IMG/VR virus record: IMGVR_UViG_2773857937_000001
Span: 2,960 to 66,959 of that record
Length of the DNA: 64,000 nt
Reading direction: 5' to 3' (one strand)
Source of the DNA: a virus
The translations under genes and the position numbers were made by a program. Under the pieces are notes generated by a model, which made no database searches, was not told where the DNA came from, and was given only the letters and a program-made list of their open reading frames with translations. Shown here in pieces: positions 10,638 through 21,385 of this stretch. Numbering within the stretch: position 1 is the stretch's first letter; each line of letters opens with the position of its first letter.

Positions 10638-11828
10638 GTGACCTGGGACGAGCACAAAGCGAATTTTGCCAGGCTGGCACGCGATGGCGGCTATACCATC
10701 GCTCAATACGCAGCAGAATTTAATCTTAACCCCAATACAGCCCGCCGCTACCTGCGCGCCTTTAAAGATACTGGCACCGGTGCGGATGGCGTTACACCAA
10801 ATAAACCCGTAAGAACTCCCGCAGCAAGAGCCAGAAATGATCAAAGCAGTGATCATAAAAATAGTGATCACTTAGTCAGTAAAGTAATTAAAAAACAGAA
10901 AGATAAGCGCGTGATCACTGGCGCGCTGGCGCAAGCCTCTCGCCAGAAAAAGCAGTTAAATGATCGCGAAGGTGATCATGATGTGATCACTCGCGCCAAG
11001 CGATCACTTAAATCGCGCCTTGAACGTGATCGTATTGATGATGACGGTGAAACGTTTGAGTTTAGCCCCACCGATTACCAGATAGACAACAACGAGGCCC
11101 GACGGGAAGCGCGCGCCATGCTCCGCCGTTCTGGTGCTGACGCTCTCGAAACAGCCTTACTTGAAAAGACTCTTTCGCACCTCCTTATGCTGGAAAACGC
11201 TCGTGACGTTTGTATTGAGCTTGTGCAGGAGTTACGCACAGAGAACAAAGATAAAGACGAAACGCCGGTTGAGTACCGCATTGCCAGCATGCTTAACAGT
11301 TGCACCGCGCAGATAAGCAGCCTGGTGAACACAATATTCAGTATCCGCAACAACTACCGGAAAGAGAACCGCGAAGCCGAGAAGCACGCGCAGGCTATGG
11401 GCCATACCGGCATTGTGCAGTTGGCATATCAGCGCCGCCGCGAGCTGGGGTGGACCGCACAAGAAACGGCGGAATTCATCGAAGCCCAGGGCGGGAAAGT
11501 GCCCCCTTTGCTTATGGAGACGATCCGTGCCGAACTGCGAATGCCAAAACAGGAGAAACCAGACTCTACCGATGAAACTGTAGACGGTGCTCCATCACTA
11601 GAAGATCTCGACAGAGAGGCGCGAAAACGAGCCGCCAGCCGTCGCGCAGATTCCTCCCTATGGATTGAACAGCGTAGAGAGGAAATAGCCGAAATAGTCG
11701 ATACAGGCGGTTATGGAGACGTTGATACTGAAGGCGCATCGAATGCCCCATGGCTTGAGCAAGACCTCGATGAAGATGAGGAGGAAGACGAGGAAGTAAC
11801 ACGCAAGCTATACGGAGAGGATGACTGA
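10638..11828 (+). CDS. pacA: terminase small subunit PacA
   Basis: Recalled similarity to P1 PacA ([40 protein letters not shown]). It contains the pac site. Confidence 0.8.
10838..11032. other. pac packaging site: cluster of about 9 GATC-containing hexamers (TGATCA/G) in two groups
   Basis: Read directly: tgatca, gtgatcat, gtgatcac, gtgatcact, tgatcgc, gtgatcatgatgtgatcac, gcgatcac, gtgatcg. The P1 pac has 7 Dam-methylatable hexamers inside pacA. Confidence 0.7.
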
Positions 11829-13315
11829 TGGCCCCCCGTAGTTGCGTAACCGATCCACGATGGAGAAAACTTGTCTCCCTATACCGTTATGACTGGATAA
11901 GCGCCGCAGACGTGCTGTTTGGCAAAACACCGACCTGGCAGCAGGATGAAATCATCGAATCGGTCCAGGAGCCGGGAAGTAAAACGAGCGTTTCATCCGG
12001 TCACGGCACAGGTAAATCGGACAACGCCAGCATGTTGATCATGCTATTTCTCATCATGTTTCCAGGTGCCCGCGCAATACTGGTGGCGAACAAAATTCAG
12101 CAGGTCCGGGACGGTATCTTTAAGTACATAAAAATAAACTGGGCTACGGCCACCAGCCGCTTCCCCTGGTTGGCCAACTATTTTGTACTGACCGAGACAT
12201 CATTCTATGAAATAACAGGCAAGGGCGTCTGGACAGTCATCCCTAAAGGCTTCCGCCTGGGTAACGAAGAGGCACTGGCAGGGGAACACGCCGATCACCT
12301 GCTCTATATCATTGATGAAGCCTCCGGGGTAAGTGATAAGGCATTTGGTATCATCACCGGCGCGCTGACCGGGGTAGATAACCGAATTCTACTGTTATCG
12401 CAGCCTACCAGACCGAGCGGCTATTTCTATGACTCGCACCATAAGCTGGCTAAACGGCCAGGCAATCCAAACGGTATCTACACGGCGATAACTCTTAACA
12501 GTGAAGAGTCACCCCTTGTTACCGCCGACTTTATCAAAATGAAGCTGGCAGAGTACGGCGGCCGCGATAACCCGATGTACCTCATAAAAGTACGTGGGCT
12601 ATTCCCTAAAACCCAGGATGGCTTCCTGCTTGGTCGTGATGAAGTAGAGCGCGCTACCCGCCGTAAGGTAAAGATAGCCAAAGGATGGGGCTGGATCGCA
12701 TGCGTGGACGTCGCTGGTGGCACTGGACGAGACAAATCAGTTATCAACATAATGATGGTATCTGGCGATCGAAATAAGCGCCGCATTATCGCCTATCGCA
12801 TCATCGAGTACACAGACGTTACAGAAACCCAGCTGGCAGCCAAGATAAACGCGGAATGTAGCCCTGACCGTTATCCAAACATCTCTATCGTCATTGATGG
12901 TGACGGCCTGGGTAAATCCACCGCAGACCTGCTTTACGACAACTACGGCATAACAGCCCAGCGCATCCGCTGGGGTAAGAAAATGCACAGCCGGGAGGAC
13001 CGCAGCCTGTACTTCGATCAGCGTGCGTTCGCTAACATACAGGCCGCAGAAGCGGTGAAGTCTGGTCGTATGCGTCTTGATAAAGGGGACGCAACGATTG
13101 ATGAGGCGTCAAAGATCCCCGTAGGTATCAATGCCGCCGGTCAATGGAAAGTTATGACCAAAGAAGATATGAAGAAAAAACTCAACCTGCGTTCACCTGA
13201 CCATTGGGATACATACTGCTTTGCTACGCTAGCAAACTATGTACCTCAAAATGAGGTATTAAGCGTCGAAGATGAGGCGCAGGTTGATGAGGCTCTGGCG
13301 TGGCTTAACGAATAA
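11828..13315 (+). CDS. pacB: terminase large subunit PacB
   Basis: Deviant P-loop SSGHGTGKS, Walker [10 protein letters not shown], the P1 pacA-pacB arrangement, and 495 aa. Confidence 0.8.
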
Positions 13316-13341: not shown

Positions 13342-14193
13342 TTATTTGGAACTTTCGGGATTATCATTAACGGGTGATCCCTTTTTTTCTTTACGTGTGC
13401 GAGTTGTTGACGCAGCAGACTGAGCTTTTTTAGCTTCTCTAAGACGTGCAAAATTATTTTTAACATCTTCAATATCTTTAATTCTGTATATTTTAGCTTG
13501 TGGCCAGCGCTCACATATAATTGGCTCGATTGAGTCATATAAGCTGAATTTCTCTTTTTCAAACTCAGGGCTAAGAAACAAGCCGTCTCTCAGCGTCTCA
13601 TCGCAGATGAAGACGCCGCACAAGGGGACATGGTAGGGCACTGACTTCCCTCCGTTATAATTTGGGCTGGTGGAGATATAGTGAACCCTAAGCATCGTTT
13701 CATTGAAGCCATGAATACGCATACGGAATTTTTCATCTTCAGGAAATGATTCCATAAGTTTCTTTGTTTTTTCCAAATTATCTATGTATTTTTTACTCCA
13801 GTCTGTTATTTCCCCTGATTTCTGAATCCTAATATCTTTATCCAGCAGGTGAATGATTCTCTTAGCTGTCATATTCACGCTGTTAATAGCTTCAGTCTGG
13901 TATGTCGTGGCTTTTCTTACCCCTCTTAAAATATTAGGAATGGGGTATAGAATTGTTTTTGGAACATTTAGATCAGGATATTGTTCCAGTTCTTTAGCCA
14001 TAGCAGCCCAACGGTCTATATCCGCTTGAACTCGATCCGTTTCTTTGAACGGTAGTACAACTACTGGCCTAACTGAACGCCCATCGCTCGTTTTATCGAT
14101 GTGTTGTGCGCGGGCAACAGCGCTGGCAAGAAAGAGATCCCTGAATTTGACGAAGTCCCTGTACAACTGTTCGCCATACACATAATTGACCAT
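13342..14193 (-). CDS. c1: C1 repressor of lysis (immC)
   Basis: Strong similarity to recalled P1 C1 (MVNYVYGEQLY...DETLRDG...PVNDNPES). Start set at the MVNYV Met inside the longer ORF. Confidence 0.85.
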   Translation of the reverse strand: MVNYVYGEQLYRDFVKFRDLFLASAVARAQHIDKTSDGRSVRPVVVLPFKETDRVQADIDRWAAMAKELEQYPDLNVPKTILYPIPNILRGVRKATTYQTEAINSVNMTAKRIIHLLDKDIRIQKSGEITDWSKKYIDNLEKTKKLMESFPEDEKFRMRIHGFNETMLRVHYISTSPNYNGGKSVPYHVPLCGVFICDETLRDGLFLSPEFEKEKFSLYDSIEPIICERWPQAKIYRIKDIEDVKNNFARLREAKKAQSAASTTRTRKEKKGSPVNDNPESSK

Positions 14194-14287
14194 AGAGGCT
14201 CCTCCGAAAATTATAAGTATCACACCCCCCAGCACTGGATCGCCGGAGGGTGTTTATACCATTATATGAGGATTGATCAAAAAAAAT

Positions 14288-14784: not shown

Positions 14785-14913
14785 GTTGTGGGGCCGGGGC
14801 TTGAACCCGGATAACGGCTGGTCAGCCGTATGAGATATCCCAGGTAATGATCCTTAGATAATGCTCACCTCCCCATATCTGGGGCGCTCTTTCCAATTAA
14901 GCTACACCACAAC
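14785..14913 (-). ncRNA. tRNA-like structured RNA element, copy A (129 nt; tRNA-Ile-like D- and T-arm remnants with expanded variable region)
   Basis: Minus-strand read: GTTGTGG-TGTA-GCTT AATTGGAAA GAGC (D-arm) ... CCGGG TTCAAGC CCCGG (T-arm) CCCCACAAC-A. A 7-9 bp terminal stem is present. It is one of three paralogous units sharing their termini and a conserved flank (AGTGCTCTC.CCGTTGTGGTG). It lies in an ORF-free leader between two C1 operators and coi. Confidence 0.4.
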
Positions 14914-15056
14914 GGTGAGAGCACTGCTCCGGTAGCTTGCGCTACTGGTTCAACTCGCGGCTAAATGAAGATCCACTCATATCCAATGCTCTTACCGTTG
15001 TAAGCCAGTTACCGTATGGCACTGACATGTCGCGTCTTTTTCGGGGCAAAAACTTA

Positions 15057-15073
15057 TAATTTATTAGAACAAT
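15057..15073 (-). promoter_or_regulatory. C1 operator (AATTTTATTAGAACAAT, reverse orientation)
   Basis: 15 of 17 match to the consensus. Confidence 0.6.
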
Positions 15074-15140: not shown

Positions 15141-15157
15141 ATTGCTCTAATAATTTT
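15141..15157 (+). promoter_or_regulatory. C1 operator (ATTGCTCTAATAATTTT)
   Basis: 16 of 17 match to the consensus. Confidence 0.7.
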
Positions 15158-15200: not shown

Positions 15201-15234
15201 ATAACTTCGTATAGCATACATTATACGAAGTTAT
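15201..15234. other. loxP: loxP site-specific recombination site (ATAACTTCGTATA-GCATACAT-TATACGAAGTTAT)
   Basis: An exact 34-bp match to canonical P1 loxP, including the spacer. Confidence 0.95.
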
Positions 15235-15305
15235 TTCTAGCGCTTCCGAACCTGACTAATGATACTGTAAATCCATACAGGGTAAAGGGTTTGGCGGTCA
15301 AAAAG

Positions 15306-15325
15306 CGATCACTTAATCAAGTGAT
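15306..15325. promoter_or_regulatory. perfect palindrome GATCACTTAA/TCAAGTGATC carrying two Dam GATC sites, upstream of the 356-aa ORF
   Basis: Read directly. A possible Dam-methylation-sensitive regulatory site. Confidence 0.35.
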
Positions 15326-15432
15326 CATGAGCGAGCTACGCAAAATCTGGAAAGCTATCACCGCCGATAACTGACAGATTTCACGTAGCGCACAGTTGTG
15401 TAAAAACCAATCAATCACAGTTCGAGGTATGT

Positions 15433-16503
15433 ATGGCGCAAATAAAAAGGAACGGAAAAATAAGTATTGGTGATGCCCGGTTATGCATTTATGAAGACCC
15501 GGACCGCGTTGATGATGCTTATGAGCGCGAGTTTAAGCGAGAGGTTTTCCGCCGCATCATCCAAACGTTAAACCGCCTCGGTTGGCTGGTGGAGATCCCA
15601 CAAGACAAAATCGAGCAATACAGTGTTAGCTTCGCGCGCAATTTCCGCTATTGCACAAAAGGAGATCTTAAAGCTGACCTATCCACCTGCGGGCGTAGCA
15701 TTGAACTTGAATTCTTCCAGAGTGTAAACGCGCCGGACCGTCCTGATCACGAAGGTCGGTATCAATCGGACAAAGAAAAGCATATGCCCTATCTACTCCG
15801 CTTAGAAATGTTGCGCACCCGCAAGCGGATAATCACCTACCTGACCAACGTTTTTGACGAGTATAGCCTCGCAGAACCACACTATAGCTGGAAAGACATT
15901 GGCCCTGGCAAATTGACAAATATGGACGTCATTGAAGCCGATTACCGATCCAGTTGGCACTATCACGGCAATTGGGAAGAGTACCTGAAAAAGAACCCGT
16001 ACATGTCCAGTGGGCGAAACAGCACATCAGCAGAAGGTCATCAACTGGTCCCTGGTATGCGCGTCTGGTGGTTTGACTGGAAGGGACGGATTATGACTGG
16101 CACAGCGTGGTATCACATCAATAATATGTGGTACGTCACCTGGGGCCGCTACGGCATAAACAATATCGCGAGCTTTGAGATATTCACTCAATTACCTGAA
16201 AACCCACGAATGAAACGTAACCAGCGCCTGCGCCGCCGTAAACTGGAGGGATTGTTGGTCGATGCCATAACCAGAATGGACTACCTGCGCGCCCACGAAA
16301 TTAAGCAAATGCTCTATCCGGATAACGAGCCGCTTTATCGTCTGTTTCACACAGTCCACCAGCTTTACCACCTACCAGGATTTAATGGCTATACGAAGGA
16401 TCCCAACTACGCGGGTAAATTCCGCCGCAAAGAGGTAGAACGGTTCAGCAATGATGATAACCGCATTGAACCTGTAGGCGCTGAAGAGGAGTCCACCGCA
16501 TGA
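15433..16503 (+). CDS. hypothetical protein (356 aa, Trp/Tyr-rich) inserted between loxP and cre
   Basis: A long ORF with a GAGGT RBS and no recognisable motif. P1 has only about 0.4 kb between loxP and cre. Confidence 0.6.
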   Translation: MAQIKRNGKISIGDARLCIYEDPDRVDDAYEREFKREVFRRIIQTLNRLGWLVEIPQDKIEQYSVSFARNFRYCTKGDLKADLSTCGRSIELEFFQSVNAPDRPDHEGRYQSDKEKHMPYLLRLEMLRTRKRIITYLTNVFDEYSLAEPHYSWKDIGPGKLTNMDVIEADYRSSWHYHGNWEEYLKKNPYMSSGRNSTSAEGHQLVPGMRVWWFDWKGRIMTGTAWYHINNMWYVTWGRYGINNIASFEIFTQLPENPRMKRNQRLRRRKLEGLLVDAITRMDYLRAHEIKQMLYPDNEPLYRLFHTVHQLYHLPGFNGYTKDPNYAGKFRRKEVERFSNDDNRIEPVGAEEESTA

Positions 16504-16715
16504 AACCAAGCATAGTAGCGACCAATCTGGAGCTGGAGAAAAATCGAGGTTATTGGCGCGCAAAAGGCTTTGATCGCAAGGCATGCGACCCGTTTCTTAC
16601 GCGTGGCGATGAGGTTATAAAACGCCATAGAGGTAACTGGTGTCTATACGATGTTTCCAGTGGGCGCGTAAAAGCCGAACCAATCCTGTACACTTTATTG
16701 AAAAATATCATCTGA
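16500..16715 (+). CDS. hypothetical small protein (71 aa)
   Basis: Its start overlaps the upstream stop (ATGA). Confidence 0.4.
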   Translation: MKPSIVATNLELEKNRGYWRAKGFDRKACDPFLTRGDEVIKRHRGNWCLYDVSSGRVKAEPILYTLLKNII

Positions 16716-16722
16716 GCAGACA

Positions 16723-17751
16723 ATGACCAATTCGTTAACCGTTCATCATAATTTGCCCGCCCTCTCCGTTGAAACCACCAGCGATGAAGTGCGCGACAAC
16801 CTCAATACGATGTTTCGTGACAAAGAGGCATTTTCCGAACACACCTGGAAAATGTTGATGTCGGTTTGCCGTGCCTGGGCTGGCTGGTGCGCAGACAATG
16901 GTCATGTTTGGTTCCCGGCAAAATCAGAAAACGTCCGAGACTATTTACTGAGCTTGCAAGCACGCGGTTGCGCGGTGAAAACAATTGAACAGCACCTTGG
17001 CCAGTTAAATATGTTGCATAAGCGTGCTGGGCTGCCACGCCCCAGCGATAGCAATGCAGTATCACTGGTAATGCGACGGATCCGAAGGGAGAACGTTGAC
17101 GCCGGGGAGCGAGCAAAGCAAGCGCTGGCTTTTGAGCGAAGTGATTTTCATCAGGTCCGTGACATGCTGAAAGACAGTGACCGCGTGAAGGATATTCGCA
17201 ATCTGGCCTTCCTTGGCCTGGCTTATAACACGTTATTGCGTATCGCGGAGATCACGCGCATACGTGTTAAAGACATATCACGGACCGAAGGCGGCCGCAT
17301 ACTTGTTCGCATTGGACGAACTAAGACACTAGTCAGCACGGCTGGCGTAGAAAAAGCGTTAAGCCTGGATGTGACAAGGCTGGTGGACCGCTGGATCTCC
17401 GCGTCTGGCGTTGGTGACGATCCTGAAAACTTCCTGTTTTGCCGGGTACGCAAAAATGACGTTGCCGCGCCGTCCCCCACCAGCAAGCTAACCACGCGAT
17501 CACTTGAACATATCTTTGAGGCCGTTCACCGCACGATACATGGCGCGAAAGATGAGACTGGAGAGCGTTATCTGGCGTGGTCCGGACACAGTGCGCGCGT
17601 TGGCGCAGCACGCGACATGGCCCGCGCCGGTGTTGAGTTGCCAGAAATAATGCAGGCTGGTGGTTGGACGAACGTGAACATAGTCCTTAACTACATCCGA
17701 AATCTGGATAGCGAAACAGGCGCAATGGTTAGGCTTCTGGAAGAGGATTAA
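16723..17751 (+). CDS. cre: Cre tyrosine recombinase
   Basis: Near-full-length similarity to recalled P1 Cre (LTVHQNLPAL...HSARVGAARDMARAG...GGWTNVNIVMNYIRNLDSETGAMVRLLED). It is adjacent to loxP. Confidence 0.95.
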   Translation: MTNSLTVHHNLPALSVETTSDEVRDNLNTMFRDKEAFSEHTWKMLMSVCRAWAGWCADNGHVWFPAKSENVRDYLLSLQARGCAVKTIEQHLGQLNMLHKRAGLPRPSDSNAVSLVMRRIRRENVDAGERAKQALAFERSDFHQVRDMLKDSDRVKDIRNLAFLGLAYNTLLRIAEITRIRVKDISRTEGGRILVRIGRTKTLVSTAGVEKALSLDVTRLVDRWISASGVGDDPENFLFCRVRKNDVAAPSPTSKLTTRSLEHIFEAVHRTIHGAKDETGERYLAWSGHSARVGAARDMARAGVELPEIMQAGGWTNVNIVLNYIRNLDSETGAMVRLLEED

Positions 17752-17794: not shown

Positions 17795-17811
17795 ATTGCT
17801 CTAATAATTTT
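17795..17811 (+). promoter_or_regulatory. C1 operator (ATTGCTCTAATAATTTT) heading the cre-ref intergenic cassette
   Basis: 16 of 17 match, 18 bp upstream of the 17829 ORF. Confidence 0.7.
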
Positions 17812-20788: not shown

Positions 20789-20814
20789 GACGGTCTTCGG
20801 GCCGTCTTTTTTTT
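20789..20814 (+). terminator. hairpin GACGG-TCTTCGGG-CCGTC followed by T8 (intrinsic terminator/attenuator) between operator and ref
   Basis: Read directly. Confidence 0.55.
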
Positions 20815-20827
20815 GGGCGTGATTACA

Positions 20828-21385
20828 GTGAAATTGACAGAAGAACAGATTAAACGGCAAAGACAACGAGCCAATGAGGCATCGCGGAAGGCAATTGCCA
20901 GGCAACGAGAAAAATTGGCTGATCCCGTCTGGCGTGAAGAGCAGTACCGCAAGCGCCGAGAATCAGAAGCCAAAAGACGCGCGCGTAAACTCAACTCCCC
21001 TCCTTCCCCACCAGCGAAACCACGTAAGCCGATAAAATCACGTGGACTCAAAGGCCGTACGCCCAACGCCGAAGAGCGCCGTATTGCAAAAGCACTCGGC
21101 GCGCTACCGTGCATTGCATGCTACATGCACGGTGTGATCACAACGGAGATCTCCCTCCATCACATTGAAGGAAGAACCGCACCAGATTGCCACAAGAAAC
21201 AACTCCCTCTATGCAAGTGGCATCACCAGCACACAGCGCCGTTGGAAGTACGAAAGATTTATCCGTGGCTGGTGCCGGTACATGCAGATGGCAATGTAGG
21301 TGGTAAATCCGAATTTTCCCGCCTTAACAAGCCGGAAAGAGAACTGCTGGTGGATGCATATTCCCTGGCTGGTTTATTAGTCTAA
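20828..21385 (+). CDS. ref: Ref recombination enhancement function (HNH endonuclease)
   Basis: Strong similarity to recalled P1 Ref (IARQREKLADPVWRE...LPCIACYMHGVI...SLHHI.GRTAP.CHKKQLPLC.WHHQH.AP.EVR..YPWLVPVHADG). GTG start chosen by alignment with the P1 N-terminus. Confidence 0.8.
   Translation: MKLTEEQIKRQRQRANEASRKAIARQREKLADPVWREEQYRKRRESEAKRRARKLNSPPSPPAKPRKPIKSRGLKGRTPNAEERRIAKALGALPCIACYMHGVITTEISLHHIEGRTAPDCHKKQLPLCKWHHQHTAPLEVRKIYPWLVPVHADGNVGGKSEFSRLNKPERELLVDAYSLAGLLV

Follow-up and report, generated by a model that had tools for sequence, protein, structure and literature searches.

The Cre-lox system of phage P1 is among the most used of genetic tools; its natural operon has been little studied, and the function of cra is still to be assigned. 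In the P1 record of Sternberg et al. (1986; X03453), an open reading frame (ORF), ORF1, stands between loxP and cre, and Cra is annotated in P1, SJ46, and AF234172. The gene has been described between loxP and cre (PMC2409434, PMC10695390), and neither cra nor cre of P1 is essential for lytic growth (PMC10695390). Here we describe the corresponding region of a 64,000-nucleotide stretch of viral DNA (IMG/VR record IMGVR_UViG_2773857937_000001, positions 2,960 to 66,959; "the window"), in which a 356-codon gene precedes cra.

An additional gene at the head of the cra-cre operon

The window is part of a P1-like phage-plasmid, with the order pacB, c1, loxP, 356-codon gene, 71-codon ORF, and cre (Table 1). 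The nearest relative in public data, the 92-kb Salmonella enterica contig GCA_033210895.1, has proteins in this region that are 97 to 100% identical. Three parts of a P1-type lox-cra-cre module are present, namely, a 34-bp lox site, a Cre-type recombinase gene downstream on the same strand, and cra directly upstream of cre. A first reading, made from the letters of the DNA (the sequence-only reading), had described loxP as base-for-base that of P1 and Cre as about 80% identical; the site (ATAACTTCGTATAGCATACATTATACGAAGTTAT) does equal positions 35 to 68 of X03453, and 275 of 341 Cre residues (81%) agree. Both ORFs listed in that reading are real and are joined by an ATGA overlap.

The sequence-only reading had also taken the whole 1.5 kb between loxP and cre, small ORF included, for an insertion, and in this it was mistaken. 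The 71-codon ORF is cra, a native P1 gene with a "cre-associated function"; its product is 68% identical to the 73-aa ORF1/Cra of P1 (E = 3e-33), and it ends 7 nt ahead of cre. Since both this ORF and the leader (198 bp, 15235 to 15432) have P1 counterparts, the sole DNA extra to P1 is the 356-codon gene (~1.07 kb). The loxP-cre spacer measures 1,488 bp in the window versus 416 bp in P1, and the difference of 1,072 bp is accounted for by this 1,071-nt gene, placed between leader and cra. In its loxP, its leader with the same ribosome-binding-site context, its cra, and its cre, the region otherwise resembles that of P1.

We read the stretch as, more likely than not, the leader and first two cistrons of a P1-type cra-cre operon carried by a P1-like phage-plasmid, with the 356-codon gene added. 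The locus is a modest variant of a known module, and cra and a cre promoter with Dam sites are already known features of P1. What is new is one conserved, uncharacterized gene at the head of the operon in many relatives of P1 outside Escherichia coli. The textbook layout of P1 is one of several, since many non-E. coli lineages of the P1 family have this further conserved first cistron, and P1 may be a lineage that lost it.

Selection on and age of the 356-codon gene

The 356-codon gene is a real gene under strong purifying selection. The ratio of nonsynonymous to synonymous substitution rates (dN/dS) was 0.089 in comparison with Cronobacter phage JK004 (dS, 1.6), 0.065 with CP053320 (dS, 2.4), and 0.128 with a 98%-identical Salmonella relative (dS, 0.056); for cre, dN/dS was 0.04, with dS similarly saturated. 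The gene diverged in step with cre: identities to the window for the 356-aa protein and Cre, respectively, were 79% and 82% in JK004, 75% and 83% in CP053320, 70% and 82% in Klebsiella aerogenes, and 56% and 65% in Pantoea. Its residence in this slot goes back about as far as the divergence of the several non-E. coli P1-like lineages that carry it.

The G+C content of the gene is 49%, versus 48% across the window. No direct or inverted repeats flank position 15433 or 16503, and the breakpoints are the gene boundaries. A search for signs of a transposon or cassette revealed no terminal repeats or target duplication, and no transposase domain was found in the protein with Pfam. A recent insertion is rejected because dS is saturated, dN/dS is low, and divergence tracks cre.

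Distribution and direction of the change

Cronobacter phage JK004, five Salmonella plasmids, a K. aerogenes contig, and Candidatus Pantoea alvi PSNIH6 all carry the gene after the lox leader and before cra. Conservation in related plasmids, which the sequence-only reading had named as a check, was thus found: elements of Salmonella, Cronobacter, Klebsiella, and Pantoea hold the gene in the same slot, and four lineages retain its ATGA overlap with cra. The Pantoea element, which is far more divergent (C1, 57%; Cre as above; lox-like site ATTACTTCGTATAGCTCCAATTATACGAAGGAAT), also has the gene between lox and cra, with one extra ORF ahead of cra. The gene was absent from P1/P7/SJ46 and D6 and, at blastn sensitivity, from 5,426 complete E. 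coli genomes. It is carried by 5 of the 678 PLSDB plasmids that matched the query stretch, nearly all of which matched via the region around loxP. The lox spacer reads GCATAAAT in the 98%-identical Salmonella relative (L004/L005, 9770 to 9803), ACACACAT in CP053320 (L003, 4062 to 4095), and GCTCCAAT, with altered arms, in Pantoea (L014, 5179 to 5212).

In a tree of Cre, P1, CP053320, JK004, and the window are nearly equidistant (79 to 83% identity), and Pantoea falls outside. Presence of the gene in this outgroup favors an ancestral gene that was later lost in the P1/P7 lineage, and we regard such a loss as somewhat likelier than a gain here. Two observations pull the other way. D6, the most distant P1 relative checked, lacks both cra and the 356-codon gene, and a gene-family tree (neighbor joining, without support values) groups the Pantoea copy with two lambdoid-prophage copies, not strictly with the P1-like ones. 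Monophyly of the P1-like copies is not cleanly supported by that tree; the grouping makes a second, independent acquisition possible and weakens the direction of the indel.

An alternative hypothesis, which we consider a serious contender although not the probable one, is that a foreign cassette (moron) was put into a once-short loxP-cre spacer in the lineage of the window, the P1 layout being ancestral. It would fit the lack of the gene in the P1/P7/SJ46 lineage and D6 and the clustering of the Pantoea copy with prophage copies. Moreover, P1 looks slightly farther from the window than do JK004 and CP053320 in Cre, PacB, and C1, so that P1 may be sister to the whole gene-bearing clade. The slot also takes other cargo: a conserved 68-aa ORF ahead of the 356-codon gene in CP053320 and the Klebsiella contig (L041), a 131-aa ORF (phrog_20152) between cra and cre in the 98%-identical Salmonella relative (11303 to 11698), and 188-aa and 143-aa ORFs in Pantoea, all in PHROGs without a function or in none. 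The 131-aa ORF, which the window lacks, is a genuinely recent indel in the slot.

In holding differing small genes of no assigned function across relatives, the lox-cre slot is like phage morons and the variable cargo slots of phage-plasmids. The 356-codon gene itself is unlike such cargo, being old, codiverging, and under purifying selection, with no fast turnover. The saturated dS, the dN/dS of ~0.07 to 0.09, and the divergence that follows cre make any cassette event an old one. The G+C content equilibrated with the window, the lack of target duplications and terminal repeats, and the fact that the outgroup Pantoea element, too, has the gene in its lox-cra-cre operon also argue against a cassette, which, as proposed, wrongly took in cra.

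Leader, Dam sites, and promoters

We compared eight leaders, those of the window, its Salmonella relative, JK004, CP053320, the K. aerogenes contig, P1, SJ46, and Pantoea; a window coordinate equals the P1 (AF234172) coordinate plus 15,217. The leader of the window, from loxP to the first ATG, aligns with that of P1 through CCAATCAATCA and the ribosome-binding site. This leader-end motif directly precedes cra in P1 and precedes the 356-codon gene in the window and JK004. Its CAATCA is invariant in all eight leaders, and Pantoea and Klebsiella are each one base off the consensus.

The P1 record AF234172 annotates, in the leader, Dam site 1 and the minus-strand promoter P2coi with an overlapping LexA binding site; Dam sites 2 and 3 at the −35 hexamer of P3cre (= pR1); P2cre (pR2) in cra; and P1cre (pR3) before cre. 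The window retains the LexA box with P2coi, a GATC at the P3cre −35 hexamer, and the cre-proximal promoter. It differs from P1 in lacking Dam site 1, in the placement of its GATC sites (+73 and +89, versus +81 and +89 in P1), in its weaker P3cre hexamers (P1 has TTGATC and TAAAAT), and in a degenerate pR2 −10 hexamer.

The sequence-only reading had pointed to a perfect 20-bp palindrome with two GATC sites about 110 bp upstream of the gene and, from these, to expression sensitive to Dam methylation. The two sites lie at 15307 and 15323, 107 bp before the ATG, much as described. The palindrome is not perfect: it consists of 8-bp arms, GATCACTT and AAGTGATC, around a 4-nt spacer, and 16 of its 20 positions are symmetric. 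The window contains 20 perfect inverted repeats with 8-bp arms (spacer, 0 to 6 nt) and 25 GATC pairs ≤20 bp apart, and because such features are common, the significance of the palindrome must rest on conservation and not on statistics. Two or three GATC sites stand at +73 to +94 after lox in all eight leaders, including those without the extra gene, and TGATCA is invariant. The GATC cluster is thus a family-wide property of the cre leader, with or without the 356-codon gene. The GATC at 15323 to 15326 is Dam site 3 of P1, inside the P3cre −35 hexamer, and that at 15307 matches a site in SJ46 and none in P1. By homology of the pair to Dam sites 2 and 3 of P1 cre, Dam-sensitive expression is plausible here; the part of the claim that did not stand is a tie to the extra gene, as the cluster is not specific to it. 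Sternberg et al., whose title speaks of "regulation by DNA methylation," reportedly saw higher expression in dam− cells.

The P3cre equivalent is placed by positional homology (AF234172 104 to 129 = X03453 155 to 180). A consensus scan of the window leader gave no plus-strand promoter, which tells against transcription from this point; given that result and the weaker hexamers, the promoter is one that we infer. By contrast with P3cre, the pR3 equivalent is well kept, so that cre probably has its own proximal promoter, and this promoter could serve cre only. In the arrangement we propose, the 356-codon gene would be the promoter-proximal cistron, transcribed from the P3cre equivalent with GATC sites at its −35 region. 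The methylation state of the DNA would then set the expression of this gene and, by way of the ATGA overlap, of cra; both genes would depend on the distal promoter, and cre would keep its proximal one.

A 15-bp inverted repeat (GCTACGCAAAATCTG ... CAGATTTCACGTAGC) brackets the −10 hexamer. Across the eight leaders, P1 included, 87.5% of cells pair, versus 17 to 45% when the register is slid; covariation in the same leaders did not exceed that in shuffles. The P1 genome record has no annotation for this repeat, which could be an operator for some regulator, possibly Cra.

A LexA box and P2coi are conserved at the lox-proximal end of the leader. The LexA-box core ATCCATACAG is kept in all eight leaders; seven of them have CTGT as the left arm, the exception being the Klebsiella leader (L041) with CTGG. 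A promoter scan found TTTACC-16-TATCAT on the minus strand (15286 to 15259). With both elements conserved, SOS-controlled transcription would run leftwards through loxP toward coi and c1.

Table 1. Features of the lox-cre region and its surroundings, in window coordinates
Feature	Position	Strand	Remarks
pacB	11828-13315		
C1 repressor gene	13342-14235	minus	
loxP	15201-15234		13-bp inverted arms and 8-bp spacer GCATACAT; identical to P1 loxP
P2coi-like promoter (putative)	15259-15286	minus	Aligns to AF234172 P2coi 41-68; overlaps LexA box
LexA-box homolog TACTGTAAATCCATACAGGG	15263-15282	plus	Aligns to P1 AF234172 LexA site 46-65
GATC pair in imperfect palindrome	15307-15326		GATCACTT-AATC-AAGTGATC
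P3cre (pR1)-equivalent promoter (putative)	−35, 15321-15326; −10, 15341-15346	plus	GTGATC and CAAAAT; 14-nt spacer as in P1
Conserved 15-bp inverted repeat	15335-15349 and 15375-15389		GCTACGCAAAATCTG ... CAGATTTCACGTAGC; 25 nt between arms; brackets −10 hexamer
Conserved leader end	15407-15432	plus	CCAATCAATCA and ribosome-binding site GAGG (15424-15427)
356-aa gene	15433-16503	plus	PHROG 7674
cra, 71 aa	16500-16715	plus	PHROG 804; start overlaps stop of 356-codon gene (ATGA)
P2cre (pR2) −35 homolog	16570-16575	plus	TTGATC, with GATC, inside cra; compare P1 X03453 332-361; −10 degenerate (TTCTTA)
P1cre (pR3)-equivalent promoter (putative)	16687-16711	plus	TGTACA ... TATCAT; compare X03453 449-473 / AF234172 400-424
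cre	16723-17751	plus	342-aa tyrosine recombinase; PF00589, E = 8.5e-27
Matches to ATTGCTCTAATAAWTTT	15141-15157, 15057-15073 (minus strand), 17795-17811; also 9987, 20718, 34237, 34265, 52494		

Family and predicted structure of the 356-aa protein

The 356-aa protein belongs to PHROG 7674, a widespread, uncharacterized family of temperate-phage early regions, and matches phrog_7674 over its full length (E = 5.5e-152; residues 1 to 354 on profile positions 1 to 352 of 354). A word-indexed search returned 213 homologs from Gamma-, Beta-, and Alphaproteobacteria, 43 to 57% identical outside the P1-like group and mostly 340 to 375 aa long, with a minority of ~300 aa. An exhaustive search of 1.84 billion proteins gave 622 clusters (50% identity) at E ≤ 1e-3, and the longer relatives from that search showed no informative domain fusion. 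A literature search found nothing on the family. PHROG 7674 thus comprises several hundred sequence clusters and has a confident predicted structure, with no Pfam model or assigned function.

The protein is rich in Trp and Tyr, as the sequence-only reading had it (2.8% and 6.2%, respectively), and among the 55 long ORFs of the window it has the largest share of Tyr. The same reading saw no recognizable domain, which is correct for the single sequence: neither this protein nor that of the 71-codon ORF had a match in Pfam, NCBIfam, or PADLOC, and among the PADLOC-DB 2.0 defense models, no family reached E ≤ 1 for either. At the level of the family, a UVR (UvrB/UvrC) motif does appear. The family profile matches the C-terminal UVR hairpin of UvrB (E = 2e-7), the family consensus rLekelakavkamdfeRaavlrdilf aligns with UvrB LEAEMKEAAKALDFERAAQLRDIIF, and 43 of 59 family members reach the Pfam UVR model (PF02151) at E ≤ 0.1. 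An AlphaFold2 model from a 59-sequence alignment (mean predicted local distance difference test [pLDDT] score, 91.9; predicted template modeling [pTM] score, 0.68) has two helices that form a hairpin at residues 264 to 280 and 284 to 294. In these two respects the family consensus and the model recall the UVR domain, the UvrB C-terminal hairpin that pairs with UvrC; the remainder of the protein is unrelated to UvrB and UvrC.

A structure-based homology search of the kind suggested in the sequence-only reading gave no full-length match among solved or viral structures. Parts of the model resemble KA1 domains (BRSK1, Chk1, and METTL16/TUT1) and Tudor/KOW/PWWP small beta-barrels, at 5 to 16% identity; judging by the order of secondary-structure elements, the KA1-like match probably covers residues ~8 to 140 and the barrel residues ~205 to 250. 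The KA1 and Tudor/KOW/PWWP proteins are eukaryotic, with unrelated biology, and the resemblance is one of fold only. The barrel (isoelectric point [pI], 9.5) and the hairpin (pI, 10.5) are basic segments. We found no catalytic fold or motif in the protein, and its conserved N-terminal domain had no match to restriction-endonuclease-like or other known nuclease folds.

Genomic context of homologs

Neighboring genes were clustered across 35 homolog loci. The most frequent neighbor was RdgC (9 loci), followed by a C5 DNA methylase (6 loci); SSB, a Gp37/Gp68-like protein (by sequence pattern), and a CI-type repressor (5 loci each); and RecT with YqaJ exonuclease and a Ref-like RecA-dependent nuclease (4 loci each). 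The common theme is the early DNA-recombination/replication module of temperate phages (proteobacterial prophages). In Microcystis phage MACPNOA1, the homolog overlaps the end of a XerD-like recombinase gene, and one lambdoid prophage has it between the cI/cro region and int. The cra gene co-occurs with homologs in P1-like elements only; a candidate Cra partner in Bordetella phage PHB04 was rejected, as the 73-aa ORF after the homolog there is unrelated to Cra.

Ref-like genes are found close to homologs of the 356-aa protein in two Massilia prophages. A few kilobases downstream of cre in the close relative L004 are genes for a Ref-type RecA-dependent nuclease (PF16786; 15800 to 16357, equivalent to 20813 to 21385 of the window) and a Tad2-like domain protein (PF11195, anti-Thoeris family; 16652 to 17473).

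Possible functions

We tentatively suggest, with considerable doubt, that the 356-aa protein is not an enzyme but a binding protein with a role in DNA recombination or repair. It would be built of four modules: a KA1-like alpha/beta domain, a Tudor/SH3-like barrel, a UvrB-type UVR helical hairpin, and a small C-terminal domain. The hairpin would serve for partner binding or self-association, and the basic modules would contact nucleic acid. Other findings count against this suggestion. No neighbor is obligatory among the 35 loci and no fusion is telling, so that the proposed role draws on context and one short motif; and the UVR segment of the window protein, KLEGLLVDAITRMDYLRAHEIKQMLY, is by itself too diverged for significance in Pfam. 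For now it is a hypothetical protein, well delimited and not a surprise; if its function came to light, we would probably learn something of how temperate phages handle recombination or repair in the host.

The slot and the neighborhoods could also suit an anti-defense or defense (superinfection-exclusion) cargo, although we think this unlikely. Such cargo is typical of the variable slots of phage early operons and phage-plasmids, prophage homologs sit in early regions beside DNA methyltransferases (and, as noted above, once between cI/cro and int), and no housekeeping role is evident in an operon whose cra and cre P1 can dispense with in lytic growth (PMC10695390). No PADLOC model matches, however, no partner genes make up a system, and the long vertical conservation at low dN/dS stands against the rapid turnover usual for arms-race genes.

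We speculate, as a long shot, that the protein is the founding member of a new class in temperate phages, in which a hairpin that mimics UvrB docks onto host UvrB/UvrC or a different UVR partner, so that nucleotide-excision repair or recombination is diverted or blocked as the element becomes established, while the Dam-sensitive cre promoter restricts synthesis to newly entered or replicated DNA. An accessory factor of Cre-lox (e.g., one biasing resolution over dimer formation) or a regulator of the operon is very improbable: the gene is the first cistron of the cre operon and translationally coupled to cra, its MACPNOA1 homolog overlaps a recombinase gene, and the inverted repeat at the promoter has no known binding protein, but most of the 35 homolog loci have no adjacent recombinase, P1, P7, and SJ46 lack the gene yet have an identical loxP and P1 Cre-lox functions, and the repeat is also conserved in P1.

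Other features of the window

An ORF-free gap ~280 bp from loxP contains a tRNA-like element on the minus strand (14792 to 14921). Its parts are a 7-bp acceptor stem (GTTGTGG/CCACAAC), a D-arm, an extra hairpin (CCCCA-GATA-TGGGG), an anticodon-like arm (loop CTCATAA in JK004), a long variable arm, and a T-arm (CCGGG-TTCAAGC-CCCGG). Standard ARAGORN and Rfam searches returned nothing for it; relaxed ARAGORN reported a tRNA-Val containing a 32-nt intron, a doubtful call. JK004 and CP053320 have the element in conserved form, with compensatory changes at a few pairs, whereas P1 and SJ46 lack it.

The 17-mer ATTGCTCTAATAAWTTT, which we take to be the operator consensus of P1 C1, has eight matches in the window versus 0.06 expected by chance (Table 1). 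Two of them flank the region upstream of loxP, one lies directly after cre at a promoter-like site, and none falls between loxP and the 356-codon gene.

Nine GATC sites are packed into ~190 bp (10839 to 11031) just ahead of pacB, where a P1-type pac site would be expected. GATC is overrepresented in the window as a whole, with 309 sites versus 245 ± 13 expected.

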